52,572 bases of DNA from a virus (taxonomy: Duplodnaviria; Caudoviricetes): the IMG/VR virus record IMGVR_UViG_3300032308_000777, positions 1 through 52,572 of that record. The stretch is one strand, 5' to 3'. Position numbers and translations under genes: made by a program. The notes under the pieces were generated by a model. That model had not been told where the DNA came from and ran no database searches. It saw only the letters and a list, made by a program, of their open reading frames with translations. Shown piece after piece: positions 1 to 44,105 of this stretch; within the stretch, counting starts at the first letter, position 1, and each line of letters begins with the position of its first letter.

Positions 1-123
1 CAAGCTGGCCAAGCTGCTCAAGGGCACTCAGGAGACCCTGCCGGCAGCAGAGCGTCAGGCCAACCTTGCCAAGTTCATTGAGCCTAGCAAGGTGCAGCAG
101 CGCCTGTACCACGGCACCACTGC
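1..123. repeat. Terminal direct repeat, copy 1 (identical to 52450-52572); circular assembly overlap
   Basis: First 123 nt match the last 123 nt exactly and an ORF reads through the junction in frame. Confidence 0.95.
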
Positions 124-7502: not shown

Positions 7503-7684
7503 AAACCATTGGCGACCTGATTGGTGGCATCAAGTCTAGGCAGGCTGAAATAGCCGCGTCCCTCGCTGCTGGTAATGCAGCGAACTGGGAGGCTTACCAC
7601 CGCATGGTCGGACATTACGCGGGCTTACAGGAGGCCCTTGACATCCTAAGTAACCTGATGAGGGAAGATGATGAAAATAAGTGA
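7499..7684 (+). CDS. Hypothetical protein (61 aa) of the portal-GroES interval
   Basis: ATGA overlap; NWEAYHRMVGHYAGL pattern; operon context. Confidence 0.7.
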   Translation: MKTIGDLIGGIKSRQAEIAASLAAGNAANWEAYHRMVGHYAGLQEALDILSNLMREDDENK

Positions 7685-11849: not shown

Positions 11850-12977
11850 ATGGGTCAATTCAAGCCAATGGTCAAAATGATGACCACTGAGCCCTCGGTT
11901 GAACTGAAGCTCAAAAAAGGCGGCAAGGTTGAGAAGAAGATGCAGATGGGCGGCATGCCCGCTCCTTCAATGCCTGCTCGCGGTGGCATGATGCCCACTG
12001 CTTCCCCTGGGCGGCCTTCGATGGCTGCTCGTCGTCGTGCAATGATGGCTATGCCTGCCGGTGCTGCTCCTGCGGCCCCGGTTGGTATGGCTGGACGCAT
12101 GATGAAAGAGGGCGGCGAGTCCAAAGCCATGCACAAGTCTGAGATGAAGGCTATCAAAGGCCTGAAATCCGAGATGCAGTCCCACAAGGACAAACCTGCA
12201 TCAAAGGCCCACAAGGGCCTGAAGACCGGCGGCATGGCCTGCGCTACGGGCGGTGTAGTCATGGGCCAGGGCGGCTACAAGAAGGGCGGCATAGTTAAGA
12301 TGGCTGGCGTTCCAAAGAGCGGCATCATCAACACCGAAAACCAAGGCGGTGCTTACCGTGACACCATGATGCACACAGCCAAGCCTGATAACTCGCCGGC
12401 CAAAACCGGTGAAGTGAAATTGGGCAACGGCGGTGGGTATGCTACCGGTGGCGTGGCGAAGGCAAACGGCGGCGGATACCGCAAAGGTGGTGCCGCAAAA
12501 AAAGCCTACGCTACGGGGGGTCTTGTTGACACCGGCCGTCCCGTAGCGATGCCCCAGGGTCGCAAGACCCCATCGACTCCCGTGAGCATCAACCAACTCT
12601 CTGGCACCTTCAAGAAAGGCGGCAGTGTCACTGCTGCTCAAGGCCGCTTGCAGAAGAACTTCAAGAGCGAGAACGCTACGGCCATGAAACAGGCCAAGGC
12701 GTACTCCAACGAGGTTTACAGCAAGTACGGCAAGAAGATGAACGAGGGCGGCAAGGTTGACATGTCCAAGGGCGCCTACGACAAATCAATCGGCCCGACC
12801 GAGGAAGAGATGGGCATGGCCAAGGCCATCCGTTCAATTCCTCGCCGGATGATTGAGGGTGCAAAAAGCCTGTTCACCTCAAAAGAGGCTGAAAAGCCTG
12901 CCGGATCTGTTACCAAGACTGAGAAGTCCGTGACTGTGTCTCCTGGCAGAAAACGTGGCGGCGCAGTGAAGTGTTGA
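11850..12977 (+). CDS. Basic low-complexity protein with 12 or more hydrophobic-x-x-GG repeats
   Basis: 375 aa, K/G/M/A-rich; LKKGG, MKEGG, YKKGG, YATGG x2, YRKGG, FKKGG, MNEGG etc.; AAGGAG RBS. Confidence 0.8.
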   Translation: MGQFKPMVKMMTTEPSVELKLKKGGKVEKKMQMGGMPAPSMPARGGMMPTASPGRPSMAARRRAMMAMPAGAAPAAPVGMAGRMMKEGGESKAMHKSEMKAIKGLKSEMQSHKDKPASKAHKGLKTGGMACATGGVVMGQGGYKKGGIVKMAGVPKSGIINTENQGGAYRDTMMHTAKPDNSPAKTGEVKLGNGGGYATGGVAKANGGGYRKGGAAKKAYATGGLVDTGRPVAMPQGRKTPSTPVSINQLSGTFKKGGSVTAAQGRLQKNFKSENATAMKQAKAYSNEVYSKYGKKMNEGGKVDMSKGAYDKSIGPTEEEMGMAKAIRSIPRRMIEGAKSLFTSKEAEKPAGSVTKTEKSVTVSPGRKRGGAVKC

Positions 12978-14331: not shown

Positions 14332-15405
14332 ATGGCCTATTCTGGTACCGTCGGCACGACTGTCATCCAAGTCCAGACCCTGATTGATCACGGGGCGCGT
14401 CGCTGCGGGAAATTGGCCGAGGAGTTGACCTCCGAGCAGCTTCTGAGCGCCAGGGAGTCACTGTACTTCCTGCTGTCGAACCTGATCAACATCGGCATCC
14501 AGTATTGGGCCATCGACAAGAAGGTTTACGGTCTCCAGGCCAACAACTACGTCTACAAGCTTCCCATTGGTGGCAATGATGTGTTGCAGGCGCTGTATCG
14601 CAGGATGAACCGGCCGACCCCAAACAGCACCGGGGGGTATGCCTCAAGTGCCGGCGGCATTGTCGGGAACGCCTTTGACAACAACATCGACACGTCATGC
14701 ACCCAGACATCGGCCAACGGCAACATTTCTGTCAATTACGGCACCGATGATCCGGTTTACATTGGCTCCATCGGCGTTTTGCCGGGCGTTTCTGGTTCCT
14801 TCAACGCTGTTTTTGAGTATTCGGTTGACGGGATCACCTGGAGCACTTTGCTTGCGCCTGGGGTGACTACCTGGGTCAACAACGAGTGGCTCTGGTACGA
14901 CATTGAGGCTGGTCAGACGGTGCAGTATTACCGCATCCGAGAGACCGGCGGCAACACTTTGGTGCTGCGTGAGCTTTATTTCGGCAACAACTCGACCGAA
15001 ATCACGATGGCCCGGCTGAACCGGGACGACTACACCAACCTGCCGAACAAGAACTTCACGGCCAACCAGCCCTTCCAGTTTTGGTTCAACCGGACAATCC
15101 CGCAGTCGGAGATTTACCTGTGGCCGGTGCCTTCGGACCCGTTTGTGCAGATGACGGTCTGGTACTCGCGCCAGATTATGGACGTTGGCGACCTGTACGG
15201 CGAGCTTGAGGTGCCGCAGCGGTGGTTTGAGGCCGTCGTCTTCATGCTGGCTCACCGGATGAGCTTGGAGTTGCCTGGGGTCGATGCGGCCCGCATCCAG
15301 TACCTTGATGGGCAGGCCGACAAGTACCTGGGTCTGGCAGAGGCCGAGGAGCGCGACAAGTCGCCGATCTACTTCGCGCCGAACATACATCCGTACACCG
15401 CGTGA
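14332..15405 (+). CDS. Head-tail adaptor / tail tubular protein with an inserted discoidin (F5/8 type C)-like domain
   Basis: Adaptor-like N- and C-termini (ARESLYFLLSNL, IYLWPVP) flank NAFDNN...YSVDGITWSTL...YYRIR. Confidence 0.6.
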   Translation: MAYSGTVGTTVIQVQTLIDHGARRCGKLAEELTSEQLLSARESLYFLLSNLINIGIQYWAIDKKVYGLQANNYVYKLPIGGNDVLQALYRRMNRPTPNSTGGYASSAGGIVGNAFDNNIDTSCTQTSANGNISVNYGTDDPVYIGSIGVLPGVSGSFNAVFEYSVDGITWSTLLAPGVTTWVNNEWLWYDIEAGQTVQYYRIRETGGNTLVLRELYFGNNSTEITMARLNRDDYTNLPNKNFTANQPFQFWFNRTIPQSEIYLWPVPSDPFVQMTVWYSRQIMDVGDLYGELEVPQRWFEAVVFMLAHRMSLELPGVDAARIQYLDGQADKYLGLAEAEERDKSPIYFAPNIHPYTA

Positions 15406-18115: not shown

Positions 18116-18793
18116 ATGTTCTACACATACGCACACTTCAGACCAGACAACTCGGTGTTCTACATCGGGAAGGGCCGTGGTCGTCGTGCGTGGTCAAGGG
18201 ACTATCGCAATAACCATTGGAACCACATTGTTGCCAAGTATCCTGACTACAAGATTGAAATCTTGGCACGATGGGAAGACGAAAAAGAAGCTTTTGCTCA
18301 CGAAGTGTTTTTGATTGAAACTTTTCGGGGCATGGGCGTTCAACTGACAAATGTCACCAATGGTGGAACGGGCGTTGCTGGTTACAAACACACGCCTGAA
18401 TCCATTCAAAAACGATTGGATTCCATGCAAGGATATTTGCCTTCAGAGGAAACTAAGGCAAAAATGCGCGAAGCCCATCTGGGTGAAAAGAATCATTTTT
18501 TTGGGCGCAATCATTCCGAAGAAACAAAAAATCGAATTGCTGAAGCCAAAAAAGCAAACCCATCTAAGCCATGGCTTGGCAAGCCAAGAAATGAAGAGAC
18601 ACGCAAAAAAATTGCTGATGCTTTGAAGGGGCGTGTTGGACACAAACATACTGATGAGTCAAAGCGCAAATTGTCTTTGGCTCATAAAGGCAAAAAACAA
18701 GCATCGCCCAGTGAGGAAACTAGAAAAAAATTGTCTGAATCCATTAAAGCATCATGGATTCTTCGTCGTCAAAAAGTAAGAAAAGAGGTTTAA
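18116..18793 (+). CDS. Free-standing GIY-YIG-like homing endonuclease with NUMOD3 repeats
   Basis: FYTYAH...VFYIGKG; repeated HSEETK/HTDESK; AT-richer than its flanks. Confidence 0.85.
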   Translation: MFYTYAHFRPDNSVFYIGKGRGRRAWSRDYRNNHWNHIVAKYPDYKIEILARWEDEKEAFAHEVFLIETFRGMGVQLTNVTNGGTGVAGYKHTPESIQKRLDSMQGYLPSEETKAKMREAHLGEKNHFFGRNHSEETKNRIAEAKKANPSKPWLGKPRNEETRKKIADALKGRVGHKHTDESKRKLSLAHKGKKQASPSEETRKKLSESIKASWILRRQKVRKEV

Positions 18794-22652: not shown

Positions 22653-23143
22653 TGGACTTGATAAACATTCTGAAGTCGGTTGCTCCGGGCCTTGCCACGG
22701 CAGTGGCTGGCCCCCTAGGTGGTATGGCCGTCAAAGCCATCGCCGACAAGCTTGGCGTGGAGAATGAGGTAGCTGCTGTTGCCCAGGCTATTGCCGGTGA
22801 TCCAGATGCGGCGCGTAAGCTGGCAGAAATCAATCTTGAACAGTTCAAAGCGGAAGCTGCTGACCGTCATAGCGCCCGTACCATGCAAATTGCTGCGCTG
22901 CAACAAGATGACCGATTTGCCAAAAATTTTATTTATTGGTACGCATGGTTTTGGGCAGTGGGTTCAACAATATATTTTTTCTCGGTGACCTTTTTGGAAA
23001 TGCCGCAAGGTGGGCGTGACTTTGCCAACATCATTCTCGGCTTTCTGTTGGGCACGGCTGTGGCAACGATCATCAGCTTCTTCTACGGGTCTAGTAAATC
23101 CAGCAAAGATAAAACAGATGCATTGGTACAGGAGTTGAAATGA
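22652..23143 (+). CDS. Putative holin (3TM/GTA-holin-like)
   Basis: APGLATAVAGPLGG, DRHSAR, two TM helices, ISFFYGSS; upstream of the endolysin. Confidence 0.7.
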   Translation: MDLINILKSVAPGLATAVAGPLGGMAVKAIADKLGVENEVAAVAQAIAGDPDAARKLAEINLEQFKAEAADRHSARTMQIAALQQDDRFAKNFIYWYAWFWAVGSTIYFFSVTFLEMPQGGRDFANIILGFLLGTAVATIISFFYGSSKSSKDKTDALVQELK

Positions 23144-23643
23144 AAGAACACTTGGCTGATGCAATAAAAAACAACATAAAAAATGCTGTTAAAAAGTTGC
23201 ATCATGGCAAGCAGGGATCTTGTTCTGTTGAAGGTTGTCCGGGTGATGCTTTGGCAAAAGGTTTTTGTAATGCTCACTACATCCGCGCACGAAGAAACAA
23301 AGACATGAGTACTCCTGTGCAAGCTCTTGCCGATTCTTGCATTGACTGTGGCGATCCTTTAAATAATAAAGGCGGGTGGATGCGCTGTGCAAAACACTTT
23401 AAAGTTGCCCGGCAAAAAACAATCAAAGAGGCTCTGGTTGATGCGATGGGTGGATGCTGCCAAAAATGTGGTGGTGTTTTTAGTTTGTCGGTATATGATT
23501 TTCATCATGTTGGTGATAAAGACGAAAACCCGTCGTATTTGATTGCCAATTCCAGCATAGAACAAATTGCCTCTGAAATTGAAAAATGCATTTTGCTTTG
23601 CGCCAACTGTCATAGGATTGAACATGAAAGAAAATTGGACTGA
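23140..23643 (+). CDS. HNH endonuclease with Zn-binding Cys clusters, between holin and endolysin
   Basis: CSVEGC...GFCNAHY; GGCCQKCG; YDFHH; LLCANCHRIEH; AT-rich. Confidence 0.8.
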   Translation: MKEHLADAIKNNIKNAVKKLHHGKQGSCSVEGCPGDALAKGFCNAHYIRARRNKDMSTPVQALADSCIDCGDPLNNKGGWMRCAKHFKVARQKTIKEALVDAMGGCCQKCGGVFSLSVYDFHHVGDKDENPSYLIANSSIEQIASEIEKCILLCANCHRIEHERKLD

Positions 23644-24135: not shown

Positions 24136-24528
24136 ATGAGTTCCGCCGTCAAAACTGACCCCTCAAAGTGGAAGAGGATCGTTTCCCAGGTCAAGTCCAG
24201 CGGAAAGGGGGGGTCTCCTGGGCAATGGAGCGCCAGGAAGGCCCAGCTTGCCACGCAGAAGTACAAATCTTCCGGGGGGGGTTACAAAGGCCCCAAGAAG
24301 GCGGATAATTCGCTCTCACAGTGGACGAAAGAGGACTGGGGCACAAAGTCTGGAAAGCCGTCCACGCAGGGATCTCAAGCAACCGGCGAGCGGTATCTGC
24401 CCAAAAAGGCACGAGAGAAGCTGACACCTTCTGAATACGCGGCAACCACGCGAGCCAAGAGAGAAGGCATGCGACAGGGCAAGCAATTTGTCCCGCAGCC
24501 CGAATCTATCAAGAAAAAGGTGTGGTGA
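24136..24528 (+). CDS. Basic protein, DUF5872-like
   Basis: KGGSPGQWSARKAQL...YKSSGGGY...WTKEDW...ERYLPKKA. Confidence 0.6.
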   Translation: MSSAVKTDPSKWKRIVSQVKSSGKGGSPGQWSARKAQLATQKYKSSGGGYKGPKKADNSLSQWTKEDWGTKSGKPSTQGSQATGERYLPKKAREKLTPSEYAATTRAKREGMRQGKQFVPQPESIKKKVW

Positions 24529-25163
24529 TGACAGTTGCTGCCGTAATGACGTATGACAGCTTGGTCAACGACATCCAGACCTATCTGGAACGTACCGACC
24601 AAGCCACCCTGGACAAGATCCCCCAGTTCATCATGCTGGCGGAGCAGATCATTGCCGCCGATCTCAAGTTCCTGGGCAATCTGCAAGTGGTCACCAGCCA
24701 GATGGTGCAAGGCGACAACGTGATCGCCAAGCCGGCTCGTTGGCGCAAGACTGTCTCCATGAACGTCACAGTGGCCGGTAAGCGTCAGCCGGTTTTGCTG
24801 CGCACCTACGAGTACATCCGCGAATACTGGCCAGATCCGGCGCAGGAGGATGCTCCAAAGTTCTTCTGCGACTACGACTACGAGCATTGGCTTGTTGGCC
24901 CGACGCCTGACATCGCGTACAACTACGAGGTGCTGTACTACGAGCGCGTGCAGCCTCTTGACTCAGCAAACCAGTCCAACTGGTTCACGCAGTACGCCCC
25001 CCAGGCGCTGCTTTATGGCTCCCTGCTCCAGGCAATGCCGTTCCTTAAGAACGACGAGCGCATGCCGATGTGGCAGGGCAATTACGACCGCATCATCCAA
25101 GTCCTGAAGGAAGAGAACATCACCAGACTTGGTGACCGTCAGGCGATTGCGAGGGATTCATGA
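24528..25163 (+). CDS. Tail tubular/adaptor protein
   Basis: MTYDSLVNDIQTYLER...FIMLAE; GPTPD; LLYGSLLQAMPFLKND (alternative GTG start at 24522). Confidence 0.7.
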   Translation: MTVAAVMTYDSLVNDIQTYLERTDQATLDKIPQFIMLAEQIIAADLKFLGNLQVVTSQMVQGDNVIAKPARWRKTVSMNVTVAGKRQPVLLRTYEYIREYWPDPAQEDAPKFFCDYDYEHWLVGPTPDIAYNYEVLYYERVQPLDSANQSNWFTQYAPQALLYGSLLQAMPFLKNDERMPMWQGNYDRIIQVLKEENITRLGDRQAIARDS

Positions 25164-26395: not shown

Positions 26396-29386
26396 ATGAC
26401 GCAGAAGGTCTTTTCGCTCGACACGCAGGCTGGAATCCAGCGTGACGGAACTGTCTACGACAAGCTCGTCTACAACGACGGGCAGTGGGTTCGTTTTCAG
26501 CGCGGTCGGCCAAGGAAGATCGGTGGGTATCGAGTCATCGCCGACAACCTGAACGGTCCCTCTCGAGGCATTTGGGTCAATTCTCAGGACGCCTTCAGTT
26601 CCATTTTCAGCGGGTACAGCAACGGCCTACAAGTTCTGGTCATTGATGACAACGGAATTGGCGCCGGAGTCACCAATTTCACGCTGTCTAACTTCACCGC
26701 ATCGCCTTTGAACCTTTGGCAGTTTGACGGTTTTTATGACGTTGCTGGGGCTGGTGTTCAAACCATCGTTGCGCATCCTGGCAGAAATCTTGCCGCCATA
26801 GACAGTACCGTTGACACTCCCGTGTTGGCCGGCAACATCAATGGCTCTACGATGTCTCAGATCGGCGTCTTTCAGGATGCTGGAGCCTATCTGAACTCAA
26901 CCACGTCGGTAACTCTTCCAAGTGCAAATACGCTGATCGGGGCGGGTCAAGCGGTAACCGGTACCGGAATCCCCGCAAACACCACGGTCGTATCCAAGAC
27001 CGCTGAGGCTGGATTCCTGTCCGGTGTCTCCATTACAGGGACCAGTGGAACACTGTCCTGCACATCGACATCCGGTCTTTTCATCGGACAAACGGTTACT
27101 GTATCGGGCGCAGAAGTGCCCCAGGCGCTTGCTAGCGTGTCGATCACCGGTACGGGCGGGACGTTCTCCTGTACTGCAACCACGGGCCTGTACGTTGGCC
27201 AATTGCTGACTGTCAGCGGAACCCAGACCGGCACCGCCCTTGCCTCTGTTGCAGTCACCGGAACCGCTGGCCAATGTTCCTGCACGGCGGTCAATGGTTT
27301 GTTCATCGGGCAGGCGGTGGTGGTCTCTGGCACCCTTACGGGCACGGCCACCGGCATTGTCTCGGGTCTGACGTACTACATCATCAGCACCGACGGCACT
27401 TCTACGTTCCAGTTATCTGCGACCCCAGGCGGGACTGCAATTACCACAACGGCAGGCACGACCACCGGCCTTGTCTTCACCGTCAAGCTTTTCACTGGGG
27501 TAACGTCCGGAACCGCTTACTACATCACCGCGACCAACGGCACTTCCACCTTTACTCTGTCCGAGACCTTGGGCGGATCGTCAATTGTGACGGCCACCAA
27601 TAGCGTCTCTGGCCTGACGTTCTCTGTGCCGAAGTCCACCGGCCTCAACTCCGGTCAAACCTACTACATCATCGCCACGAACTACGCGACGACGTTCACG
27701 CTGTCCGCAACGAGCGGCGGATCTGCCGTCACGACCATCGTCAACGCCACGACCGGGCTGATCTTTACCCTAGGCCTGTACACCAAGGTGGTGCTGTCTA
27801 ATGCAGCCACGACCAGCGGCCAGTCAACGCTGACCTTCAACAACAACGTGGAGGTCTCCGGTGGTGTGGTGTCCCTGCACCCGTACCTGTTCGTGTACGG
27901 CAACAACGGATTGATCCGAAACTGCGCGGCAGGCAATTTGCAGGACTGGGTCTCTGCGGACGCCAATGAGACCAATGTAGCCACCGGGAAGATCGTCCAA
28001 GGGTTACCCGTCAGGGGCGGCTCAAACGCGCCTTCTGGGCTGTTCTGGAGCCTCGACAGCCTTGTGCGAGTGTCTTATATCGGCGGGGCTGGTACGCCTC
28101 CCCAGTTCTGGCGTTACGACATCATCAGCAGCCAGTCCTCGATTCTGTCATCGCAGTCGGCAATTGAGTACGACGGCATCTACTACTGGTGCGGTGTTGA
28201 CCGGTTCCTTCTCTACAACGGCGTGGTGAAGGAGATCCCGAACGGCATGAACCAGAACTACTTCTTCGACAACCTGAACTATGTTCAGCGTCAGAAGGTT
28301 TGGGTCACTAAGGTTCCAAGGTACGGGGAGATCTGGTGGTTCTACCCCCGCGGTGATGCGACGGAATGCACGGATGCGATCATCTACAACGTGCGTGAGC
28401 AGATCTGGTACGACGCCGGTCAAGCCCTTGGTGCTCGTCGCTCTGCTGGGTATTTCTCCCAGGTGTTTGCGTTTCCCGTGGCCGCAAACTGGGACGCCAG
28501 CGAAGCCGAGGCGGTTTTTGTTGACACCTTCAACGAAGTTACTGGCAGCGAGTTTTTGTATCTGGACACCTACAACGTGCAGGTTGCTCTCAATCAAGTC
28601 ATCTCCGGATCGAACATCACAACCGGTACAACCGTTGTGGCGATCACCTCGAGCAACATCAAGACTCTTGGTGCAATCACTCCGGGTTCAGGATATGTGA
28701 GTGCCGTGTACACCAACGTGCCCCTTACGGGCGGGTCTGGATCGGGCGCACAGGCAACGATTTCTGTTGTCGGGGGTCAGGTGGCGTCCGTGACTATAAC
28801 GGCCCGTGGGACTGGGTATCAGGTCGGCAACGTCTTGAGTGCGAGTAACACCAATTTGGGTGGATCCGGTTCTGGTTTTTCCATTCCCGTCACTGCGATT
28901 TATGCTCAGGCCATTGAGATGTCTTCTCCTGCCACCGGCAGCGGTGCTGCCTCATTGACGTTCTCAACCCCCGCAGGGCTGGTCCGCTTGTATCAGCATG
29001 AGATCGGCACAGATGAGGTTGAGGGTCAGAACGTGTTGGCCATCCGCAGTTTCTTTGAAACCAGCGACCTGAGTCTGACCGCCGGAGGCCCGTCTCAGCC
29101 TGCTGTGGAGGGACCAAACCGTTGGCTCAGGATTGAGAGGATCGAGCCGGACTTCCTGCAAGAGGGAGAGATGTCCGTAATCGTCACCGGTCGTCCATTT
29201 GCTCAAGGGGAGGACAAGGAATCTGCCCCCTACGTCTTTGGCCCGAACACCGGCAAGGTTGACATGAGGGAGCAGCGACGAGAGCCAAGGCTTCGTTTCA
29301 TCTCTGACGTGGCCGGCGGAAACTATCAGTTGGGCAGGCTGCTCTTGAACGCCGAGGTGGGCGACGTGAGGCCCTATGGCCCTTAA
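26396..29386 (+). CDS. Tail nozzle / tubular protein B-like protein with nested beta-domain insertions
   Basis: GIQRDGT...WVRFQRGRPRKIGG start; YWCGVDRFLLYNG, EIWWFYP, RIEPDF; internal repeats. Confidence 0.75.
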   Translation: MTQKVFSLDTQAGIQRDGTVYDKLVYNDGQWVRFQRGRPRKIGGYRVIADNLNGPSRGIWVNSQDAFSSIFSGYSNGLQVLVIDDNGIGAGVTNFTLSNFTASPLNLWQFDGFYDVAGAGVQTIVAHPGRNLAAIDSTVDTPVLAGNINGSTMSQIGVFQDAGAYLNSTTSVTLPSANTLIGAGQAVTGTGIPANTTVVSKTAEAGFLSGVSITGTSGTLSCTSTSGLFIGQTVTVSGAEVPQALASVSITGTGGTFSCTATTGLYVGQLLTVSGTQTGTALASVAVTGTAGQCSCTAVNGLFIGQAVVVSGTLTGTATGIVSGLTYYIISTDGTSTFQLSATPGGTAITTTAGTTTGLVFTVKLFTGVTSGTAYYITATNGTSTFTLSETLGGSSIVTATNSVSGLTFSVPKSTGLNSGQTYYIIATNYATTFTLSATSGGSAVTTIVNATTGLIFTLGLYTKVVLSNAATTSGQSTLTFNNNVEVSGGVVSLHPYLFVYGNNGLIRNCAAGNLQDWVSADANETNVATGKIVQGLPVRGGSNAPSGLFWSLDSLVRVSYIGGAGTPPQFWRYDIISSQSSILSSQSAIEYDGIYYWCGVDRFLLYNGVVKEIPNGMNQNYFFDNLNYVQRQKVWVTKVPRYGEIWWFYPRGDATECTDAIIYNVREQIWYDAGQALGARRSAGYFSQVFAFPVAANWDASEAEAVFVDTFNEVTGSEFLYLDTYNVQVALNQVISGSNITTGTTVVAITSSNIKTLGAITPGSGYVSAVYTNVPLTGGSGSGAQATISVVGGQVASVTITARGTGYQVGNVLSASNTNLGGSGSGFSIPVTAIYAQAIEMSSPATGSGAASLTFSTPAGLVRLYQHEIGTDEVEGQNVLAIRSFFETSDLSLTAGGPSQPAVEGPNRWLRIERIEPDFLQEGEMSVIVTGRPFAQGEDKESAPYVFGPNTGKVDMREQRREPRLRFISDVAGGNYQLGRLLLNAEVGDVRPYGP

Positions 29387-29643: not shown

Positions 29644-32600
29644 ATGGCTATTAAAAGAATAGAAGTGCCGGTTAGGTGGGAAACCCAAGGGGATGAAGAT
29701 CTGCCCCCTAATGTCTATTGGGTAAGCGACAAGTACGATGGCCCGTATGGCGGGAACTTTAATACTAAAGAGCAGGCGCTAGCATACGAAAAGTACAAAG
29801 GCAAGCCAGATCAAATCCCTGGGCTGAAGGAGGCTGCTGATGCTGCCACTGGTGTTGACTACTATGATGGTAATGGAGATTTGGTTACATCCATAGACCC
29901 AGCAAAACGTCAGGAGTATATTGACCGCGCAATGAACAGCCCATTAGACTGGGTCGGTCAAAATGTCGACTGGAGTGGCACGGGCTACGGGGGAGATTTT
30001 TCTGCCCTTGATAAACAAGTTCAATTTCTCAAAGACAACAAGTATGACACAAGCACCCTCGACAAGGGTGCATTAAATCAATACAACCTGACCAAGCAGA
30101 TTCTTGACCAGGGCACTACTAGTAAATGGTCTGGCGCTGGCTTTGGCAGCCCCACCGAAAACGCCAAACAGATGGCGCGTGTCTTAAACTCGGCTGGTAT
30201 CGAAGACATCAAAGACTTTGGAAAAATTAAGAAAGATAACTTTCAATTTTTTCCTGTTCAAGAGGAAACTGATTTTCAGGGAAACGGAACAGGTAAATAT
30301 TTTACTGTTGACGTATCTGACAATAAATCTTATGTTGATCCAAAAGATGTTTCACTTCAGCAATTCTACGACCCGGAAGGTTTCTCATACCAAGCACCTT
30401 CTATAAGAAAAAACATAGGCACAGAAGAAGTTTATGGAAACAAAAAAACCAACCAAGCCATAACGCAGGACTACAACGCCGCAGGCGGTAATATTTTTTC
30501 CGGCACATACGCAGGGCATGGCCGTACCAACTATGGGGTGAAGTTTTTAGACGATGGGACGCCTGTTTTCTACACGCAGTTTGGTGGAGACACCAGCAGC
30601 ATGGCAGACATTGCGCCAATCATATCTTTTCTGTCTGTTATTCCATCCCCCCTACAGCCGTTCGCCGCTGCTGCAAATGCACTAATTTCGATTGACAACG
30701 GCAACACCTTGGGGGCCTTGGCTTCTCTTGCCGGCATACCTGGGGTGAGCGAGGCTATCGGAGCGGCTGGTCTTGCAACCGTCGCAGAAGGCATCCAGAC
30801 CGCAAATAAAGTCGTCAACTTGGTCAACGCGGTTGAGTCCGGAAATGTGGTCGCATTGGCCGCCGCCGCTGGCAGTGCGCTTGGTGCTGGTTCTACTGAG
30901 ATTGGAGACACTGGTTTTACGGTGTCTGACGCCATGAAGGCGGCCAATCTTGTCAAGGCAATAGATAGCGGTGATCCGACCTCCATATTTAATGCGGCGG
31001 TTGGCTTTGCTCAGTCTCCAAACATCAACAAGGCTCTCAACAACCAGAGCACGACCATAACGGCTGATGGGCAAAAAGTTGCAGATCTTGTTGACAACAA
31101 TTTTGTCGCCGAGTTAGTCAACCCGAATTCTGACAGTTTTCTTGGAAATTCCGAGTCGAGCATAAACACTGCCTTGGCTTTGGCTAGCGAAGTAAAGCCT
31201 GTCTCCTCGCCAGTTGAGTTTGAGGAAAAACTTCCTGACTTGCTTGCTCCGGTGGTTGTTCCGGGCGCAGAGAATTTGGCCAATCTTATGGGTGGTCAAG
31301 GCGTAAATGTTGCTGGCCCCTTATCGGTTTCGGTTGCGCTGCCGTACAACTTGGAAAACTTGCCAAAAGATTTCCCAGTACCGGCTGGTTACAGGGTTTT
31401 GTCCAGAGAGGAAATGTTTGGCTCCCCTCGAGAGATGCAGGATGCTGGCATTGACGTAAGGTATTCAGACGACATTGACGGTAGGACCGCTCTTCTTGTT
31501 CCAGAGTCAACTGGGAAGATAACGCTTGAAGATGGACAAGTTAATATTGCAACAACGACGCCATTACAAGCTGTTGATCAAGTTCCAAGCGCAATTACAA
31601 GTGGCGGCGCCGCTGACGATGATGCCATAACCACGCTTGCCAATTCTGGCGGCTCCGAGGATGCAGTTACCCTTCTTGGTGAAACTGACAATGTTTCTCA
31701 GCCGGCGCAAGAGCAGCCCGCTGTAACTACGCTTGAGCCGTCTATCACGCCCCCTGAAGCTTTGGTGCCTGACGCATCCAACCCAAACCTAGAGGCCGGT
31801 AAAACGCCCCAGGAGAGGGCCGCAGAGGAGTGGCAACGGTACCTTGATAGCCTAGAGAATAAGCCGGCCGATCTAGACCTTCCTGGATCAACCATTGAGG
31901 CTGGGGAGTACTGGGACGAGTACAACGCGAACCTCAAGCGCATCATGGATAAGGGCGGGTACACCAGCCAGTGGCAGAACGTCAACGGCGACAAAGTCTT
32001 CGTCAACGACGACGGCACGGCCATTGGAATCACTCAGGATGGCGGCACCTACCCCCTGTCTAACACCCAGGTCGAAGAAATGGTCGGTAATGGCCTGCTT
32101 AACACGGCCGAATCTGGGTACGTTGACGCGACCGGTGGGACTGGCAACACCCCAGGCGGGACGCTCGATGAAGACAAAGAAACAGAGAGCCAAGAATGCC
32201 CGGAGGGATACGTTTTTAACCTGAACACTCGAACCTGTGTGCCGGTTGAGGCGGAGCCAGAAAACCCATGCGGCGAGGGCTTTCACTTTGATGAGGCTCG
32301 TGGAATATGCGTTGCTGACACCGACACAAAAGAAGATGAGGAGTGCCCGGAGGGTTACGTCCGCAATCTGAACACTGGTGCCTGCGAGTTGGTTTCTACG
32401 TCACCTCCTCCATCCCGTCCTCCGCCGCCTTCTGCGTCCCCTCCTCCGCCCCCTCCTCCGCCGCCTCGCAGGGTTGTACAAAACCCTACTGTCAATCCAG
32501 CGGAACCTCCGATTTCAAGGGCAATCCCAGACGAGCCGATGCGTCGCATTGGCCTACCTATATACGAGAAAATGTCAAACTTCGAAGGCCCCCTTTCTGA

Positions 32601-33168
32601 TTTTCTTGAAATGGTTCAAAAGGGCTCGTACATTTCAAAACCAACCCCAGAGGTGCAACCCATGCAGCCGAATATGAACCAGCAGCCAGACCGGCTTGAT
32701 CAACCCGACCAGACCGGCGGAAATTACTTCAATTACGGCCAGGAGTCGAGCATCGACAACATCCTGAACCCAGGCGCGTACCAGGGCTTCAAGCAGGGCG
32801 GTATGGCCACACCCCTGATGGCTGCCGGCGGGACGACCCGATACGGCATGAATTCTGGTGGCGCCTTGGATGTAGTTCATCACTCAGGCAAGCCCCGACT
32901 GGACTTCCGCAAGGGTGCCGCGGTGACCGGTAAGGGAGATGGTCAGTCCGATGACATCCCGGCCATGCTTGCGGACGGGGAATTTGTGTTTCCGGCGGAC
33001 GTGGTTGCGGCTCTCGGAAATGGCTCAACCAAGGCCGGAAGCGATAAACTCTACGAAATGATGCATGCGATCAGGGCGTATCACAGGTCGGCCAAGCCAG
33101 AAGACCTTCCTCCGCCGGCCAAAAAGTCGCCGCTGGACTACCTCAAGACCCGTAAAGCAAGGGGATAA
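29644..33168 (+). CDS. Putative internal virion/ejection protein with Cys repeats, Pro-rich linker, GG motifs and a TMP-C-terminal-like domain
   Basis: 1174 aa; CPEGY repeats; FKQGG/MAAGG/MNSGG; GDGQSDDIPAMLADGEFVFPADVV. Confidence 0.7.
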   Translation: MAIKRIEVPVRWETQGDEDLPPNVYWVSDKYDGPYGGNFNTKEQALAYEKYKGKPDQIPGLKEAADAATGVDYYDGNGDLVTSIDPAKRQEYIDRAMNSPLDWVGQNVDWSGTGYGGDFSALDKQVQFLKDNKYDTSTLDKGALNQYNLTKQILDQGTTSKWSGAGFGSPTENAKQMARVLNSAGIEDIKDFGKIKKDNFQFFPVQEETDFQGNGTGKYFTVDVSDNKSYVDPKDVSLQQFYDPEGFSYQAPSIRKNIGTEEVYGNKKTNQAITQDYNAAGGNIFSGTYAGHGRTNYGVKFLDDGTPVFYTQFGGDTSSMADIAPIISFLSVIPSPLQPFAAAANALISIDNGNTLGALASLAGIPGVSEAIGAAGLATVAEGIQTANKVVNLVNAVESGNVVALAAAAGSALGAGSTEIGDTGFTVSDAMKAANLVKAIDSGDPTSIFNAAVGFAQSPNINKALNNQSTTITADGQKVADLVDNNFVAELVNPNSDSFLGNSESSINTALALASEVKPVSSPVEFEEKLPDLLAPVVVPGAENLANLMGGQGVNVAGPLSVSVALPYNLENLPKDFPVPAGYRVLSREEMFGSPREMQDAGIDVRYSDDIDGRTALLVPESTGKITLEDGQVNIATTTPLQAVDQVPSAITSGGAADDDAITTLANSGGSEDAVTLLGETDNVSQPAQEQPAVTTLEPSITPPEALVPDASNPNLEAGKTPQERAAEEWQRYLDSLENKPADLDLPGSTIEAGEYWDEYNANLKRIMDKGGYTSQWQNVNGDKVFVNDDGTAIGITQDGGTYPLSNTQVEEMVGNGLLNTAESGYVDATGGTGNTPGGTLDEDKETESQECPEGYVFNLNTRTCVPVEAEPENPCGEGFHFDEARGICVADTDTKEDEECPEGYVRNLNTGACELVSTSPPPSRPPPPSASPPPPPPPPPRRVVQNPTVNPAEPPISRAIPDEPMRRIGLPIYEKMSNFEGPLSDFLEMVQKGSYISKPTPEVQPMQPNMNQQPDRLDQPDQTGGNYFNYGQESSIDNILNPGAYQGFKQGGMATPLMAAGGTTRYGMNSGGALDVVHHSGKPRLDFRKGAAVTGKGDGQSDDIPAMLADGEFVFPADVVAALGNGSTKAGSDKLYEMMHAIRAYHRSAKPEDLPPPAKKSPLDYLKTRKARG

Positions 33169-33170
33169 AA

Positions 33171-34289
33171 ATGTCATTCCTACAAGGCGGCGCACTGCCG
33201 AACGTCACAGAGACGACTACCGCCACAACCACTCCGACCACGACGGAGTATTCAAAACTCCTCAAAGACGTTGCCGGTGCCGGATCAACCGCAATTGGCA
33301 GGACTGGTGCCGAAAGCATCGCTGGTTATGACCCCCTGCAAACGATGGGGTACAACGCCCTCCCGGGTGCAGTTAACGCCTACCAGCCCGGCTTAGATGC
33401 TGCACAGCAGACCGCCTCCAGGGCAGCGGCAGGCATCACTCCTGGCCGCATTCAGTCGCTGATGAACCCGTACACCACGAACGTGGTCAACGAGATGGCT
33501 CGGCTGTCTCAGCAGAACGTCGAGCGCAACCTGATGCCGAGCATGAGGTCTGGTTTTGTCGGCACTGGTGCCTTGGGTAGTCAGCGCTACGCAAACGCCC
33601 TTGGGCAGTCCATGGCGGACACTCAGGCCAACTTGACTGGGCAGCAGTACGGTGCGCTCTCCAAGGGCTACAGCGAGGCTTTGAAGGGCGCCTTGGATGA
33701 GGCGCAGCTTATGAATTTGTCTGCGAAGACTCAGGGCGATCTTGCAAAAATGCAGCAGCAGCTTGGTGTAGAGGGCGCAGGCGCTTTGACCAAAGCAGGC
33801 GCAGAGCGTCAGGGGTACCAGCAAGCCATTCTTGATGCACCGATGAAGAACGCAAAGAGTGCTGCGGATCTGCTGCGTGGGTACACGATGCCGAGCACTG
33901 AGACGAAGACCTTCACGGGGCCTCGCACTCGAGACTACTACCAGCAGTCGGACCTTGGGAAAATTGGCGGTGTACTTTCCCTGATTGGCGGCGCCAAAGA
34001 AGGTAAAGAGGGAGAAGGCCTCAACAGGCTTTTGGGCATTTTGAGCAAAACGAACGCAAAGGGATCAAGCATTATCAACAGCTTGCTCAATCCTGCGGAC
34101 GCATCAAGCGCAGCAATTGGGCAGGGAGAGACAGAAGCCATGAAGGCTGCCAACGTTCTTGATGACTACAACAAACTAATTTCTGGTTTGCAGAACAATT
34201 ACTCAGACCTTGTTTCATCTGATGTTATTTCTTCGTACAACAACCTTTTTGATGTCTTGGGCGAAGACGATTACTTTACTGGCATCTGA
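33171..34289 (+). CDS. Putative DNA ejection/pilot protein
   Basis: MNPYTTNVV...GALGSQRY motif, Q/A/G-rich helical; position. Confidence 0.6.
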   Translation: MSFLQGGALPNVTETTTATTTPTTTEYSKLLKDVAGAGSTAIGRTGAESIAGYDPLQTMGYNALPGAVNAYQPGLDAAQQTASRAAAGITPGRIQSLMNPYTTNVVNEMARLSQQNVERNLMPSMRSGFVGTGALGSQRYANALGQSMADTQANLTGQQYGALSKGYSEALKGALDEAQLMNLSAKTQGDLAKMQQQLGVEGAGALTKAGAERQGYQQAILDAPMKNAKSAADLLRGYTMPSTETKTFTGPRTRDYYQQSDLGKIGGVLSLIGGAKEGKEGEGLNRLLGILSKTNAKGSSIINSLLNPADASSAAIGQGETEAMKAANVLDDYNKLISGLQNNYSDLVSSDVISSYNNLFDVLGEDDYFTGI

Positions 34290-34313: not shown

Positions 34314-36212
34314 ATGGCAACAAAAGCAGCAACTTCGGTCTACGCTCCGGGTGAAGATCCGGAATCAATGAAGGCAAATCTTGAGTATCAAGAGGCCCTC
34401 AGAAAACTGACTGAGTCCATTGATCAGCGCAAGAACCGGTTCTTTGATCCGACTTGGCTTGCTGCTGCTCAAGGGTTCCTTGCCCCTGGAGCGCCTGACT
34501 TTTTTGAGTCTCTCGGCCGAGTTGCTGGCAATGTTGGCAAGGCTCAAGAAGCGCAGGTCAAGGAGAATCAAGACATCGCGCAGATGCGCCTGGATCTTGC
34601 TGGCCGAGGCGTAGAGCTTCAGCGTCAGAAGGCCAGGGACGCGATGGTTCGCAGGTTACTTGCCGGGGAGGGGGAGCCTCCTGCCGCCGAGCCACAGGCT
34701 GGGGCTTTACCGGGAACGCCTGGGAGAGCCCGAGGAGCCCTTGCGCAAACTCAAGGCGCAGCCCCAAGCCAAGAGATGGGCCTTCAGATCGCCCCGCCTG
34801 TTCCTGGCATCAGCCGTCAGCAATTCTTTGCTCTTGGTTTGCTTGATAACAAGAGCCCTTCCGACCTTGCCAAAGAGTGGGAAACCATTGTAAGAGGCCG
34901 GCAGCAGGTAAAAGACAACTTCTTGGTTAATGTCGGGACTGGCATAGCCTATGCATTACCGACAGGGCAATTAGAAGAAGTCCAAATCTTCAGCGAAGAT
35001 GGCACTGCAAAAACGTACAGAGTGGCAAGAGATATTGCGGCCGAGTTGAGTGCGTATGCCAAAACGGGAGATGCGGAAAAGTATTTTGCTCTTGCAAAAC
35101 GCATCACGCAGGCCCCTCAAAGGCAAACGGCTCAGGGCGCCGCTGCTCAGTTGCCGCCGGTCGTCGCGCCTGCCGCTGTGCAGGCCCCGCTGACTGCTCC
35201 GACCGTCCCTGCGCTGGCTGCTGTTGCGCCTGCCGCCGTTGCGTCATCGGTTGCTCCTGGATCTTCCCCAGCAAGTCCAGCCCCTCTTCCGCCCGTTGGT
35301 GCGGCCCAAACTGCTGCTCCGGCTCGTATTGCCGATCAGGCTGCCGCCGCCCCACAACTTGCCGCTCAAGCAGCGCCTGCTGCCGTTCCACCGGTTACAC
35401 AGGCCGCCCTTTCCGGTTTAAGGTCGCAAGAGCAAATCGCAGAAGAAAAGCGTCGATCAGAAATTGACCAAGCGGCAGAGACAGAGCGCCGCAAGAAACT
35501 TGCACAGGAAGCCGCCGTCAGAGAGGCCGCAGTTGAGCAGACCGACCGGACTGCCAGAAGCACCTATCAAAGCGCAAGCAAGATTCTGGACTACGTCAAA
35601 AAGAGTCCAAACTTTTTTGGCATCTTTGCTCGTCCCGGGGTTGTGCCTGCAATTGGCGGATTCATTGAGCAGGGTCTTCGAACTCCAACGGGAACGATTG
35701 ATCTGCCTGGGTTCAGGGAGAGCATTACCAAGCTCATGCCGAATGTGCGGCAGCAGGACTTGGACAATGTTGTTCTTGCTGCTGCCGAGCTTGCTGAGAT
35801 TGAGCTTAATTTCAGCCGGCAGTATTTCCAGGGCCAGGGGGCTGTGACGGAAAACGAGCGAAAAATTGTTCGCGCAATTCCTGGCTCGGTCAGTAGTAGC
35901 CCGAGGGTCTTGAAGGCCCGTATGGAGCTTCTGCGGGACAGAGCGCAGTACGACATTGACGTAGCCGATGCCTTCCGCGATTGGCAGAAAAACAATATGG
36001 GCCGGTCTTACTTGGATTTTGAGCGCGAATCTCAGTTGTACAAGGACGTCAAGAAGGACTTTGACAATAAGGCCGCAAAAATCTACAACGGTCTTCCGGC
36101 GATTCCTACCAGGGAAAGGACAGCAGCGCAAAATCGCGCGGCCGGCGCTCCAGGCAATATTGACACGGCCAGCGACACCTTGGAAAACATTCTGAAGAAA
36201 GGAAGACCATAA
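34314..36212 (+). CDS. Putative internal virion/ejection protein
   Basis: Helical, A/P-rich linker, GQGAVTENER motif. Confidence 0.6.
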   Translation: MATKAATSVYAPGEDPESMKANLEYQEALRKLTESIDQRKNRFFDPTWLAAAQGFLAPGAPDFFESLGRVAGNVGKAQEAQVKENQDIAQMRLDLAGRGVELQRQKARDAMVRRLLAGEGEPPAAEPQAGALPGTPGRARGALAQTQGAAPSQEMGLQIAPPVPGISRQQFFALGLLDNKSPSDLAKEWETIVRGRQQVKDNFLVNVGTGIAYALPTGQLEEVQIFSEDGTAKTYRVARDIAAELSAYAKTGDAEKYFALAKRITQAPQRQTAQGAAAQLPPVVAPAAVQAPLTAPTVPALAAVAPAAVASSVAPGSSPASPAPLPPVGAAQTAAPARIADQAAAAPQLAAQAAPAAVPPVTQAALSGLRSQEQIAEEKRRSEIDQAAETERRKKLAQEAAVREAAVEQTDRTARSTYQSASKILDYVKKSPNFFGIFARPGVVPAIGGFIEQGLRTPTGTIDLPGFRESITKLMPNVRQQDLDNVVLAAAELAEIELNFSRQYFQGQGAVTENERKIVRAIPGSVSSSPRVLKARMELLRDRAQYDIDVADAFRDWQKNNMGRSYLDFERESQLYKDVKKDFDNKAAKIYNGLPAIPTRERTAAQNRAAGAPGNIDTASDTLENILKKGRP

Positions 36213-37879
36213 TGGACTTCATGGACCTGATGAACAAGCTGTCCAAGCAGCAGCGCGAGAATGCCGTCCTTGTTGCCACTGCTGCGGCCAAGGCCGGTGT
36301 GGATCCGACCCTTGCTGTCGCCGTTGCCTACCAAGAAAGTCGATTGAACCTGAACCCCGCAAGAGGATCGTCTGGTGAAATCGGCATGATGCAGGTTATG
36401 CCGGCCACCGGCAAAGCCATAGGATTTGATGAGCAGGCGCTCTTGGACCCTCAGAAAAATATTGAGGCCGGCGTTGAGTATCTTCGGCGGGCTTTGGTCG
36501 CAACGGGGAACAATCCAAAACTGGCTGCCGCATACTACAACGGCGGCCCAGGGGCTCTGGAGGCCCTCAAGAGCGGCAAGGAGCCTGATCAAAGGGTGAT
36601 CAACTATGTGCGCTCTCTAAGCTCCTATGGTACTTTTGCAAATGCCCCGCAGGTCCAGCCAAATCCTTCAGGCTCTGATCAGGCAGCGCAGGCAAACCCG
36701 GCTGAAAAAAGACCCCCTGCGGCAGAGACCGACGATGAGATAAAGGGTACCCTGGATGACATGCGCCGAGAAGCTCTCGAACGCAGCGATTTGGATGCTC
36801 AGGAACGCAGACAGGCACAGCTTTACGGCGGAGGTGCCGGTGCAACAATATCCGCCGCAAAGGCGGCTGGTACCGCCGGTGGCTCTTTATTAAAGTCTGC
36901 GGCAAGGGCCTTAGAAGAGGGACGCCAGTCTGCCCGTGGTGCTCCGGTGGCTCCAGTTGCCCCTCCAACCGTTTCTGGGGCCTCTCCTGTCGCCCCTCCT
37001 AGATCACCAGCATCACCTGCCGGCGCAGCGCGGCTGACATCTCCTACGGGTGCGGCTGATGCCGGCAGGATGGCCGCCGGTCAGACCGGCACGATGCCGT
37101 ACAACTATGCCAAGGCAGCAGGCTTGACCGACATTGAGGCTGGCCGAGCTTTAGACATGACGAAGCAGACCGGAGGGGTTCATGACCTTACGACTCAGCG
37201 GCGAGAGGGCATGCAGAGAATTCAGCAGCTTTTCCCAGGAGAGAAGTATGTTGAGAATCCCCGCTTCGGTGGCCTTCTGACTCTTGACCAGGGCGCTGGC
37301 GGTGGTCCCCGGCAGTCCTTTGCTGTTCAGGGGCCTGTCCGTGACGTCCCCCCAGGTACGCTGATGGGGCCAGCCGCGCCGCCGCCTGAAGGCGCTCTTC
37401 GAGAGATTCCGCGCCGCGTACCGGTTCCGACCACAACGGCGCCACAGGCGCCGTCTGGCCTTGATCAGGTTTCGCAGAAATTCTCAAACATGATGAGGGC
37501 AACAGGCGCCGGCCTTGCGGCGGTCGGTCGATATATTGCTCCGCCTCTTACGGTAGCAAGCGCCGCCGGGGAGGGTGTGAACATCGCCCAGCAGTTACGC
37601 CGCCCCTCTTCTTCCGGTCTTGATGTGCTTGGCCAGTCCATGGTTGGAGCGCCACCGCAGCGTGACTACACCAGCATGGGGCTGAGTGGGTTGAACATTC
37701 TTGGTGCAGGTATGTCCTTGTTCCCGACAACCGCCGCAGTTGGCATCCCTTTGAGCCTTGGGACTGCTGCGGCACAGGCCTACAGGGACAATCCAGAGGC
37801 CAGGGAATTTATTCGTCGCAGGCTTCAAGAGGCCGGTCAGGCCCAGGCGTCTGACCCGATGACTGGATTCCCTTACTAA
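36212..37879 (+). CDS. Virion-associated lytic transglycosylase (SLT) protein
   Basis: AVAYQESR, GEIGMMQVMPAT, NIEAGVEYL, AAAYYNGGPG. Confidence 0.85.
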   Translation: MDFMDLMNKLSKQQRENAVLVATAAAKAGVDPTLAVAVAYQESRLNLNPARGSSGEIGMMQVMPATGKAIGFDEQALLDPQKNIEAGVEYLRRALVATGNNPKLAAAYYNGGPGALEALKSGKEPDQRVINYVRSLSSYGTFANAPQVQPNPSGSDQAAQANPAEKRPPAAETDDEIKGTLDDMRREALERSDLDAQERRQAQLYGGGAGATISAAKAAGTAGGSLLKSAARALEEGRQSARGAPVAPVAPPTVSGASPVAPPRSPASPAGAARLTSPTGAADAGRMAAGQTGTMPYNYAKAAGLTDIEAGRALDMTKQTGGVHDLTTQRREGMQRIQQLFPGEKYVENPRFGGLLTLDQGAGGGPRQSFAVQGPVRDVPPGTLMGPAAPPPEGALREIPRRVPVPTTTAPQAPSGLDQVSQKFSNMMRATGAGLAAVGRYIAPPLTVASAAGEGVNIAQQLRRPSSSGLDVLGQSMVGAPPQRDYTSMGLSGLNILGAGMSLFPTTAAVGIPLSLGTAAAQAYRDNPEAREFIRRRLQEAGQAQASDPMTGFPY

Positions 37880-43219: not shown

Positions 43220-43458
43220 ATGAAGATGAGCATCGCTACCGTTGTCTCGTTCGTTGGGTCATCAAGAAAAGGATTGAAGATCGTGATGGTGCGTACCGAT
43301 GGCTCAAGGGTTACGTTGATAAATATGGGAGGCGTATCAAAGGGTGGAATGACCTTCACCCCGAGTCCCGTCTTGAGACGGATGTTAGACTTGAATGGTC
43401 GCTCGGCAACAGGGGTGAAGATGGTGACTGGCGACAAGACAAAAAGGAGTCAACATGA
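43216..43458 (+). CDS. Hypothetical protein (80 aa)
   Basis: EHRYRCLVRWVI...EWSLGNRG; overlaps both neighbours. Confidence 0.65.
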   Translation: MNEDEHRYRCLVRWVIKKRIEDRDGAYRWLKGYVDKYGRRIKGWNDLHPESRLETDVRLEWSLGNRGEDGDWRQDKKEST

Positions 43459-44105
43459 AAATTGATAGAACCGGGATGAGATACGGAAATTTGGTTGTAG
43501 AGGGATGGTCCCACGCTCAGTACAGATCGCCGCGCCATGGCAGTTATCAGTTTTGGCTTTGTAGATGTGACTGTGGCAATTCCAAAATTGTGCTTGCCAA
43601 TAATTTGGTTAAAGGAAACACAAAAAGTTGTGGTTGCAAATCATCAAGATCTTCTTTTGGTCATCGCATCACAACTCACGGCATGTCTGGAACCAAGACA
43701 TACAAGTCGTGGCAAGCAATGAAAGACCGCTGCTATTCCGAATCACACATTGAGTACAAGCGATATGGTGCTGTTGGAATAAAAGTTTGCAAGAGGTGGC
43801 TTGACTCTTTTGAAAATTTTTTACAAGACATGGGCGAAAGACCAAATGGTATGTCTTTAGAAAGAAAAGATTCAAAGAAAAATTATTCACCGTCAAATTG
43901 TAAATGGGCTGATGTTTATGAACAAGCCAACAATAGGAGAAACAACAGAGTTATAACTTGTTTTGGCAAGACTCAAACTCTTGCACAATGGTCAAGGCAA
44001 ATTGGAGTTGGGGCCACCACCATTCATTTAAGAATTAAAAGAGGGTGGAGTGTAGAGATGGCATTAAATTTTAAGGAGAATGGAAATGAACATGGGAAAG
44101 CTTGA
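43455..44105 (+). CDS. Free-standing HNH homing endonuclease
   Basis: WLCRCDCG, TKSCGC, SWQAMKDRC, VCKRWLDSFENF, NYSPSNCKWA; AT-rich. Confidence 0.85.
   Translation: MKIDRTGMRYGNLVVEGWSHAQYRSPRHGSYQFWLCRCDCGNSKIVLANNLVKGNTKSCGCKSSRSSFGHRITTHGMSGTKTYKSWQAMKDRCYSESHIEYKRYGAVGIKVCKRWLDSFENFLQDMGERPNGMSLERKDSKKNYSPSNCKWADVYEQANNRRNNRVITCFGKTQTLAQWSRQIGVGATTIHLRIKRGWSVEMALNFKENGNEHGKA

Follow-up and report, generated by a model that had tools for sequence, protein, structure and literature searches.

The stretch of DNA analysed here, referred to as the window, comprises the 52,572 nucleotides (nt) of the virus record IMGVR_UViG_3300032308_000777 (Duplodnaviria; Caudoviricetes), and the element under study lies at positions 32785–33168 (+), frame 1, where it encodes the last 127 residues and the stop codon of a 1174-residue open reading frame (ORF; gene X, 29644–33168). 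We found that this segment is a widespread, unnamed module of tape measure proteins (TMPs), which here ends a protein of a podophage ejection cassette. To judge from its sequence, it is homologous to a module that many siphophage TMPs have some 100 residues short of their C-terminus. The homology was confirmed by database searches, and for the mechanism we infer a docking function, which is argued below. A prediction previously made from the sequence alone (the original prediction) had described the segment as a TMP C-terminal-like domain in a short-tailed phage, and had proposed that it reads or cleaves a hydrophobic-x-x-GG (h-x-x-GG) tag, in cis in TMPs and here in trans on many tagged proteins. 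The present results bear out the former description and do not support the latter role.

When the 127 residues were compared with the PHROGs, 11 families matched at E ≤ 0.1, seven of them annotated as TMP (best match phrog_6090, E 2.9e-6). By tblastn, 27 of 50,697 phage records were matched, and in 16 of these the matched place was annotated as TMP; a phmmer search against 1.84 billion representatives returned 12,669 proteins at E ≤ 1e-3, with 1,732 at E ≤ 1e-10 and 223 at E ≤ 1e-30. Two profiles were then used, A1 from the podophage family of X alone and A2, a mixed profile that adds TMP sequences from IMG/VR. The results showed that A1 matches the TMP of mycobacteriophage Douge (gp16) twice (E 4.2e-6) and the TMP of Pseudomonas phage JBD30 (gp46) once (E 0.017), that A2 matches the same two proteins with E 1e-30 and 3e-13, respectively, and that A2 aligns with residues 730–792 of lambda gpH (hhalign probability 89.6%, E 1.9e-6). 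Thus, the profile search of the X C-terminus that the original prediction had proposed as a check did find homology to TMPs, and the gpH strings that it had named are present in the gpH record (FATGG at 733, GEFVF at 754, LYRLM, and YATGG at 778).

A 67-residue TMP form of the core matched 815 of the 50,697 phage records, mainly those of Mycobacterium, Gordonia, Pseudomonas, and Vibrio phages, and 33 of the 40 matches listed from these 815 records were annotated as TMP. The position of the module within the proteins was also similar. The ORF ended 83–123 residues past the Gly-Glu (GE) of the core in 26 of 30 TMPs (279–918 residues past it in the remaining four), 98 residues past it in lambda gpH, and 60–62 residues past it in all 16 podophage proteins of the type found in Caulobacter phage GB2A. 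Yet, for all its frequency, no Pfam or NCBIfam model isolates the module. Pfam Tape_meas_lam_C (PF09718), which covers residues 627–701 of lambda gpH upstream of the module, did not match it at E ≤ 1, and NCBIfam TIGR01541, which spans gpH 472–813 in the C-terminal half of that protein, did not match the module of X.

The translation of 32785–33168 contains the strings quoted in the original prediction, i.e. three clustered h-x-x-GG motifs, G-x-G-x-SDD-IPA-x-LA-x-GEFVF, and LYEMM. The sub-C-terminal arrangement [FY]AxGG ... SDxIPAxLSxGE[FY]V is recognizable in X. The Gly-rich lead-in is kept in the X family as K-x-GG ... MA-x-GG ... YA-x-GG, and in TMPs the unit runs in the order [FY]-A-x-GG-[HY]-V, Gly loop, T-S-D-S-I-P-A-W-L-S-N-G-E-[FY]-V, helix, L-N-x-G, and second [FY]-A-x-GG. 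In lambda, Nitrincola phage 1M3-16, GB2A, and X, the first GG motif stands 21–25 residues ahead of GE; its form in X is a decayed one, F-R-K-G-A, with three other GG motifs located upstream. At the position of the basic C-terminal tail, the GB2A-like podophage proteins end in Y-[LM]-x-GG-R-x. In 65 podophage and TMP sequences, the residues D59, I61, A63, L65, E69, and V71 (numbered in a 130-residue segment, window 32776–33165) were invariant, in part by construction, since these sequences had been retrieved from IMG/VR by exact peptide patterns.

The alternating stretch D-x-I-x-A-x-L ... G-E-F-V-F suggests a β-hairpin. The AlphaFold2 monomer prediction, which was run twice, gave no compact fold (mean predicted local distance difference test score, pLDDT, 53.6 and 57.2); it placed two helices after the hairpin-like stretch (residues 74–80 and 85–105 of the 130-residue segment, pLDDT about 75) and left the remainder uncertain. 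A three-copy complex prediction of the 130-residue segment with alignment A2, run without controls, scored 0.25 against a mark of 0.42. The nearest named cluster of the ESM Atlas, a crAss-virus cargo domain (0.82), was discarded as a candidate, the score being at chance level and no such domain being matched in Pfam.

The remainder of X is of a different nature. Residues ~1000–1174 are common to 92–100% of 69 relatives and residues 1–950 to 0–15% of them, so that X consists of a variable body and a conserved C-terminal module. Among the best 120 matches, the members of the X family are 660–2052 residues long, and their last 135 residues are 70–100% identical; in the list of representatives, lengths of up to about 3000 residues occur. 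The body of X has a Gly/Ala-rich hydrophobic stretch around residues 320–470 (hydropathy windows at 323, 326, and 390) and, at residues ~840–920 (window 32160–32400), three repeats of a Cys pair with a spacing of ~14 residues, followed by a long polyproline run. A Pfam scan of all 1174 residues gave only CBM_14 (844–869, E 7e-6) and a sub-threshold cEGF match, and none of the TMP core families (TMP_2, PhageMin_Tail, TP901 core); under the identical scan, bona fide TMPs gave TMP_2 or PhageMin_Tail.

As a whole protein, X was not placed as a siphophage TMP, as its neighbours are an SU10-type adaptor, a 996-residue virion protein, and a lytic-transglycosylase protein. The genes stand in the order SU10-type adaptor, 411-residue ORF, 996-residue protein, X, Y, Z, and transglycosylase protein, and the last four of these form the cassette. 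We thus see large genes after the adaptor and the putative nozzle gene, one of them encoding a cell-wall hydrolase, as expected of a podophage ejection cassette. In T7, the order is gp11–12 and then gp13–16, which corresponds to the order of adaptor and nozzle followed by the cassette in the window. From gene order only, the 996-residue protein is suggested to be the nozzle or the tail hub. The transglycosylase protein matched 16 PHROG families (lytic tail protein, transglycosylase, endolysin) over residues ~10–175 and SLT-type chains in the PDB (E 1e-6). In keeping with the original prediction, the short-tailed assignment stands, since the SU10-type adaptor was found (E 7e-24), whereas families of tail tube, sheath, and tail chaperone proteins were absent from the matches when 31 ORFs were scanned with the PHROGs and 21 with Pfam.

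The same module ends the first cassette gene in Caulobacter phage GB2A, Pelagibacter phage HTVC027P (gp82–85), and Synechococcus phage MinM2. According to a table in a comparison of podophage groups (PMC11053796), a ‘tail tape measure protein’ is listed only for the RW/GB2A group, the other four groups having ‘internal virion proteins’; the RW/GB2A group is related to podovirus BPP-1. It is because of the TMP-type module that annotation pipelines label a podophage gene ‘tape measure protein’. The start of Y lies within a few bases of the stop of X, or overlaps it, in both podophage lineages, and the N-terminus of Y is kept in the X lineage and, in related form, in the GB2A-like lineage, with the pattern F/L-T-Q/E-G-x-P-x-P ... 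P-D/E-Y/W-Y-T-D/N-Y (33171–33260 and related loci). Direct contact between the end of X and the start of Y is a possibility. Y had no match in the PHROGs, Pfam, NCBIfam, or the PDB sequences, and searches of the same four collections gave no family for Z.

The reading that we prefer, and to which we give slightly less than even weight, is that the module is the docking or anchoring ‘hook’ of an expelled protein that forms a conduit. It builds on the homology to TMPs, the constant placement of the module, the gene context, the conserved end carried by a variable body, and the literature on TMPs and ejection proteins. X would be the first gene of a cassette of ejection proteins (internal virion proteins), and its product would be packaged and then expelled through the tail to form the conduit, while the module, made up of the Gly-rich lead-in, a short β-hairpin, and two helices, would hold one end of the protein. 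The anchored end would attach to the exit apparatus of the virion, which in siphophages would be the hub or the distal tail and here the nozzle, the portal, or a neighbouring cassette protein; the N-terminal body would be free to vary among phages.

Several published observations are consistent with such a function. In JBD30, TMP residues 1022–1066 are predicted to form a hook, composed of two helices and a β-hairpin, by which the TMP is anchored in the baseplate (PMC11445458), and this predicted hook falls within the stretch matched by our profiles (988–1097). The AlphaFold2 model of the module likewise has two helices after a hairpin-like stretch. In T5, the 43 C-terminal residues of cleaved pb2 are reported to lodge in a crevice between the hub subunits after opening (PMC10038345), and in the cyanopodophage A4, a large ejection protein is described as inserting its C-terminal helix into a neighbouring ejection protein (PMC12002296). 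In Douge, JBD30, and T5, the hub is reported to be plugged by a trimer of the last 30–45 residues of the TMP (PMC10038345 for T5).

A number of points weigh against a docking hook. The module is seen docked in none of the solved structures: the resolved TMP residues are only 1658–1699 in Douge, only the last 33 in JBD30, and only gpH 818–849 in lambda, where the segment that holds the module (690–817) is unresolved. The module is thus not rigidly ordered in mature virions. The JBD30 hook is described by its authors as prediction and speculation (PMC11445458). The T5 hook, considered as a homologue of the module, was rejected on its hhalign comparison (E 0.18 with A1 and 0.28 with A2), so that the T5 parallel is positional only, an analogy and not membership. 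The confidence of AlphaFold2 was low over the hairpin, and Foldseek, run with the better of the two low-confidence models, found 0 matches in the PDB at E ≤ 10. X, Y, and Z displayed no detectable sequence relation to T7 gp14–16, P22 gp7/20/16, or A4 gp26–29 in the PHROGs and PDB sequences. Moreover, the CBM_14/EGF-like Cys pairs and the polyproline run of X would be more at home in an external protein than in one that has to unfold for its expulsion, and the near-invariant core, inflated as it is by pattern retrieval, could equally fit an enzymatic or a host-directed role.

An alternative is a host-side function, in which the module would act after expulsion by engaging peptidoglycan, membrane, or an envelope protein to seat the conduit. 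C-terminal parts of TMPs exit first, and the cleaved C-terminal piece of T5 pb2 is reported to act on the cell wall (PMC10038345). In the lambda virion, the region that carries the module is disordered, and the C-terminal piece of gpH (gpHC) is stated to have an unknown function (PMC12617516). Siphophages and podophages, both of which carry the module, have the host envelope in common and not tail parts, and cell-wall hydrolase domains are often nearby, for example the SLT domain at residues 1223–1318 of the REQ1 TMP and the transglycosylase that ends the X cassette. However, no known wall- or membrane-binding family was detected in Pfam or NCBIfam, and no hydrophobic segment was found in the module by hydropathy. 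The phages that carry the module infect Gram-negative bacteria, actinobacteria, and cyanobacteria, and because these hosts are so diverse, a single host ligand would need to be very general. Taken together, we consider a host-side function unlikely.

It is also conceivable, if quite improbable, that the module marks or drives a maturation cleavage of its own chain, by self-processing or by recruiting a protease, as in the conversion of lambda gpH to gpH* and gpHC. Lambda gpH is reported to be cut in a Gly-rich stretch at ~690–710, just upstream of the module (733–790), by a catalyst given as unknown (PMC12617516), and T5 pb2 is reported to be cut after R1127 (PMC10038345), beside the hook-like stretch and just ahead of A-E-G-G. 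Asp and Glu of the core are invariant in the sampled sequences. Yet the position of the cut differs, since lambda gpH is cut upstream of the element and T5 pb2 downstream of its hook; homology of the T5 stretch is not detectable, and the podophage X proteins have only 60 residues past GE. Furthermore, the Ser and Asp proposed to be catalytic have Lys and Tyr as their aligned counterparts in lambda gpH, the sole member with documented cleavage, and the proposed Ser is Ala in HTVC027P; in JBD30, the Gly ahead of the Glu is Asp, so that Glu-Phe/Tyr alone is kept in all members compared. We found no peptidase, autoprocessing, or other enzyme family for the module in Pfam, NCBIfam, or the PHROGs. 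A structure-based test for a protease fold is weak by itself, given the low confidence of the AlphaFold2 model.

These results also bear on the role put forward in the original prediction, according to which the module acts as a reader or protease on h-x-x-GG tags of the array protein described below, the polyvalent protein, and others. The tags themselves are real in one protein: the ORF at 11850–12977 has 13 h-x-x-GG motifs, as against 3.1 expected, and with a narrower hydrophobic set it has 12 as against 2.2 expected, a number reached by none of 300 shuffles. The array motifs and the flanks of the TMP module have a common extended form, h-x-x-GG-x-V. This array protein, which is 54–75% identical in five of five complete relatives, co-occurs with the module in the X lineage (in 5 of 5 large contigs, either way). 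It had no PHROG or Pfam family and may be located inside the head or associated with DNA. It is basic, rich in Met, Lys, Gly, Ala, and Pro, and encoded after the capsid gene; its N-terminus is conserved, and it has a C-terminal Cys.

The co-occurrence is not independent evidence, however, because it is confined to a single lineage and reflects shared descent. Five complete GB2A-like genomes have the module, and in these the array protein was matched only once, marginally (E 0.009), and no ORF of comparable motif density was found. Among 21 virion and packaging proteins of lambda, h-x-x-GG was enriched only in gpH itself (6 as against 1.7 expected). Profiling of arrays against the module, proposed in the original prediction as a check, thus showed the two together within the X lineage, and the module without arrays in the GB2A-like genomes and lambda; an action in trans on tagged proteins is not upheld by this distribution. 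As for reading or cleavage in cis, the nearest h-x-x-GG is part of the module and no separate substrate, because it is fixed at 21–25 residues before GE, and this comes in addition to the replaced Ser and Asp in gpH and the lack of a peptidase match noted above. The ‘FLQGG’ at the start of Y, which had been counted as a GG tag, turned out to lie at a position that reads QG[SADE]PLP in 75 related loci, with GG in one of the 75. Without an enzyme family or a confident fold, and with catalytic candidates that are not conserved in lambda gpH and HTVC027P, a GG-reader or protease role of the module is not supported, and we give its action in trans next to no weight. Only marginally less improbable is a wider scheme, in which h-x-x-GG-x-V would be a docking motif of tail-exiting proteins (array protein, polyvalent protein, X, and TMPs) with the hairpin-helix core as its partner, and in which this tag-and-reader system would order, tether, or process these proteins and underlie the conversion of gpH to gpH* and gpHC.

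The features of the window are collected in Table 1. The record is a complete phage genome in which the last 123 nt repeat the first 123 nt; because of this end repeat, the genome is taken to be circular or terminally redundant, with a length of about 52,449 bp. A giant ORF begins just after the large terminase gene and crosses the ends of the record; we termed its product a polyvalent protein because of its ART-PolyVal, LPD23, and ParB_N domains and its HEMQH zincin motif (nt 2336). As stated in the original prediction, no prohead protease was recognizable: the PHROG scan of 31 ORFs and the Pfam scan of 21 detected no peptidase family, and the capsid protein matched fused ‘head and protease’ PHROGs over its capsid part only. 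Between the portal gene and the capsid gene there is a gene for a Cpn10 (GroES-like) co-chaperonin (7668–8108, +; Pfam E 1.5e-6). A second match to the SU10 adaptor family (14332–15405, +) was weak, with E 5.5e-4 below the family cut-off; the two SU10-family ORFs may reflect an adaptor duplication. Three homing/HNH endonuclease genes are situated among the structural and replication genes (18116–18793, 23140–23643, and 43455–44105, all +), and the replication genes lie downstream of the transglycosylase gene.

Table 1. Features of the 52,572-nt window, in the order of the coordinates (single numbers are given where the position is a single coordinate).
Feature	Position	Strand	Remarks
Giant polyvalent protein, ~1669 residues	52262–52572 joined to 1–4822	+	ART-PolyVal, LPD23, and ParB_N domains
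Portal	4826		PHROG/Pfam scans
HK97-type capsid protein	10195		PHROG/Pfam scans
GG-array protein, 375 residues	11850–12977	+	
Tail fibre	18795		PHROG/Pfam scans
SU10-type head-to-tail adaptor	24522–25163	+	Pfam SU10_adaptor, E 7.3e-24; phrog_2941, virion structural protein
411-residue ORF, virion protein	between the adaptor and the 996-residue protein		
996-residue virion protein	26396–29386	+	phrog_3287, virion structural protein, E 6e-24; directly upstream of X
Gene X, 1174 residues	29644–33168	+	ORF
Three h-x-x-GG motifs of X (residues 1049–1053, 1059–1063, and 1069–1073)	32788–32862	+	Gly-rich lead-in
Module core of X, residues 1088–1149	32905–33090	+	degenerate F-x-x-G-A, Gly loop, SDD-IPA-x-LA-x-GEFVF, two helices
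Basic C-terminal tail of X (DLPPPAKKSPLDYL and Lys/Arg) and stop codon	33091–33168	+	kept in the X family
Gene Y, 372 residues	33171–34289	+	starts 2 nt past the stop of X
Gene Z, 634 residues	34308–36212	+	Ala/Pro/Gln-rich middle
555-residue protein with N-terminal lytic transglycosylase domain	36212–37879	+	last cassette gene
Small and large terminase	50042 and 50628		PHROG/Pfam scans

The findings are of interest in two respects. TMPs and podophage internal proteins have previously been compared by function, and the presence of the module at the end of the first cassette gene of a podophage provides a concrete sequence link that joins the two protein classes. In addition, the module is the main conserved element of gpHC and so bears on a question of lambda biology that was described as open in 2025, namely what gpHC does and what catalyses its release (PMC12617516). 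The module also offers a target that is small and mutable in phages available in culture, such as lambda, JBD30/DMS3, and Caulobacter phages RW/GB2A.

Compared with named systems, lambda gpH resembles X in having [FY]-A-x-GG, a Gly loop, GE-F-V-F, and a helix with L-Y-x-x-M, followed by a second Y-A-T-GG. Unlike X, gpH lacks the S-D-x-I-P-A part and is the true tape measure of a long tail; its gene is adjacent to those for the chaperone and the tube. It also continues for ~60 further residues, which are reported to end in a gpI-binding helix at 818–849 (PMC12617516).

Among solved proteins, the best matches to the module were Douge gp16 (PDB 8zdo) and JBD30 gp46 (PDB 8rk3), which differ from X in that the module is internal and in that the matched residues are unresolved in both structures. 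Douge gp16 (8zdo chain S) has two full copies of the module, 955–1032 and 1408–1480, which stand ~450 residues apart and about 250 and 700 residues from the end. Two module sites were also seen in many Mycobacterium phage records. Because of these doubled copies, the module can be said to occur internally and repeatedly, and not just near the end of a protein. The hook of T5 pb2* (1085–1127) is like the hook proposed for the module in being a short near-C-terminal stretch reported to anchor an expelled protein in the opened hub (PMC10038345), and by eye it has the pattern D-V-x-M-x-A-x-x-GE-L-x-Y.

The ejection cassettes of T7 (gp14–16) and A4 (gp26–29) are like that of X in comprising large genes after the adaptor and nozzle, one of them with a lytic transglycosylase, and differ from it in that no sequence relation was detected. 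In a literature search that covered few subscription journals, we found no report of a TMP-type module in ejection proteins of the T7 or A4 type.

The closest cultured counterpart of X is gp065c of Caulobacter phages RW/GB2A, a protein of 580 residues annotated as ‘tail length tape measure protein’. Its body is shorter than that of X, it ends in Y-M-D-GG-R-V, and phages of the GB2A type, unlike the source phage, have no homologue of the GG-array protein (as judged from their IMG/VR relatives, with the single marginal match given above). Like X, however, gp065c ends in the module, which is 41% identical to that of X, and after its gene there likewise come two genes with no assignment and then one for a ‘lytic tail protein’.

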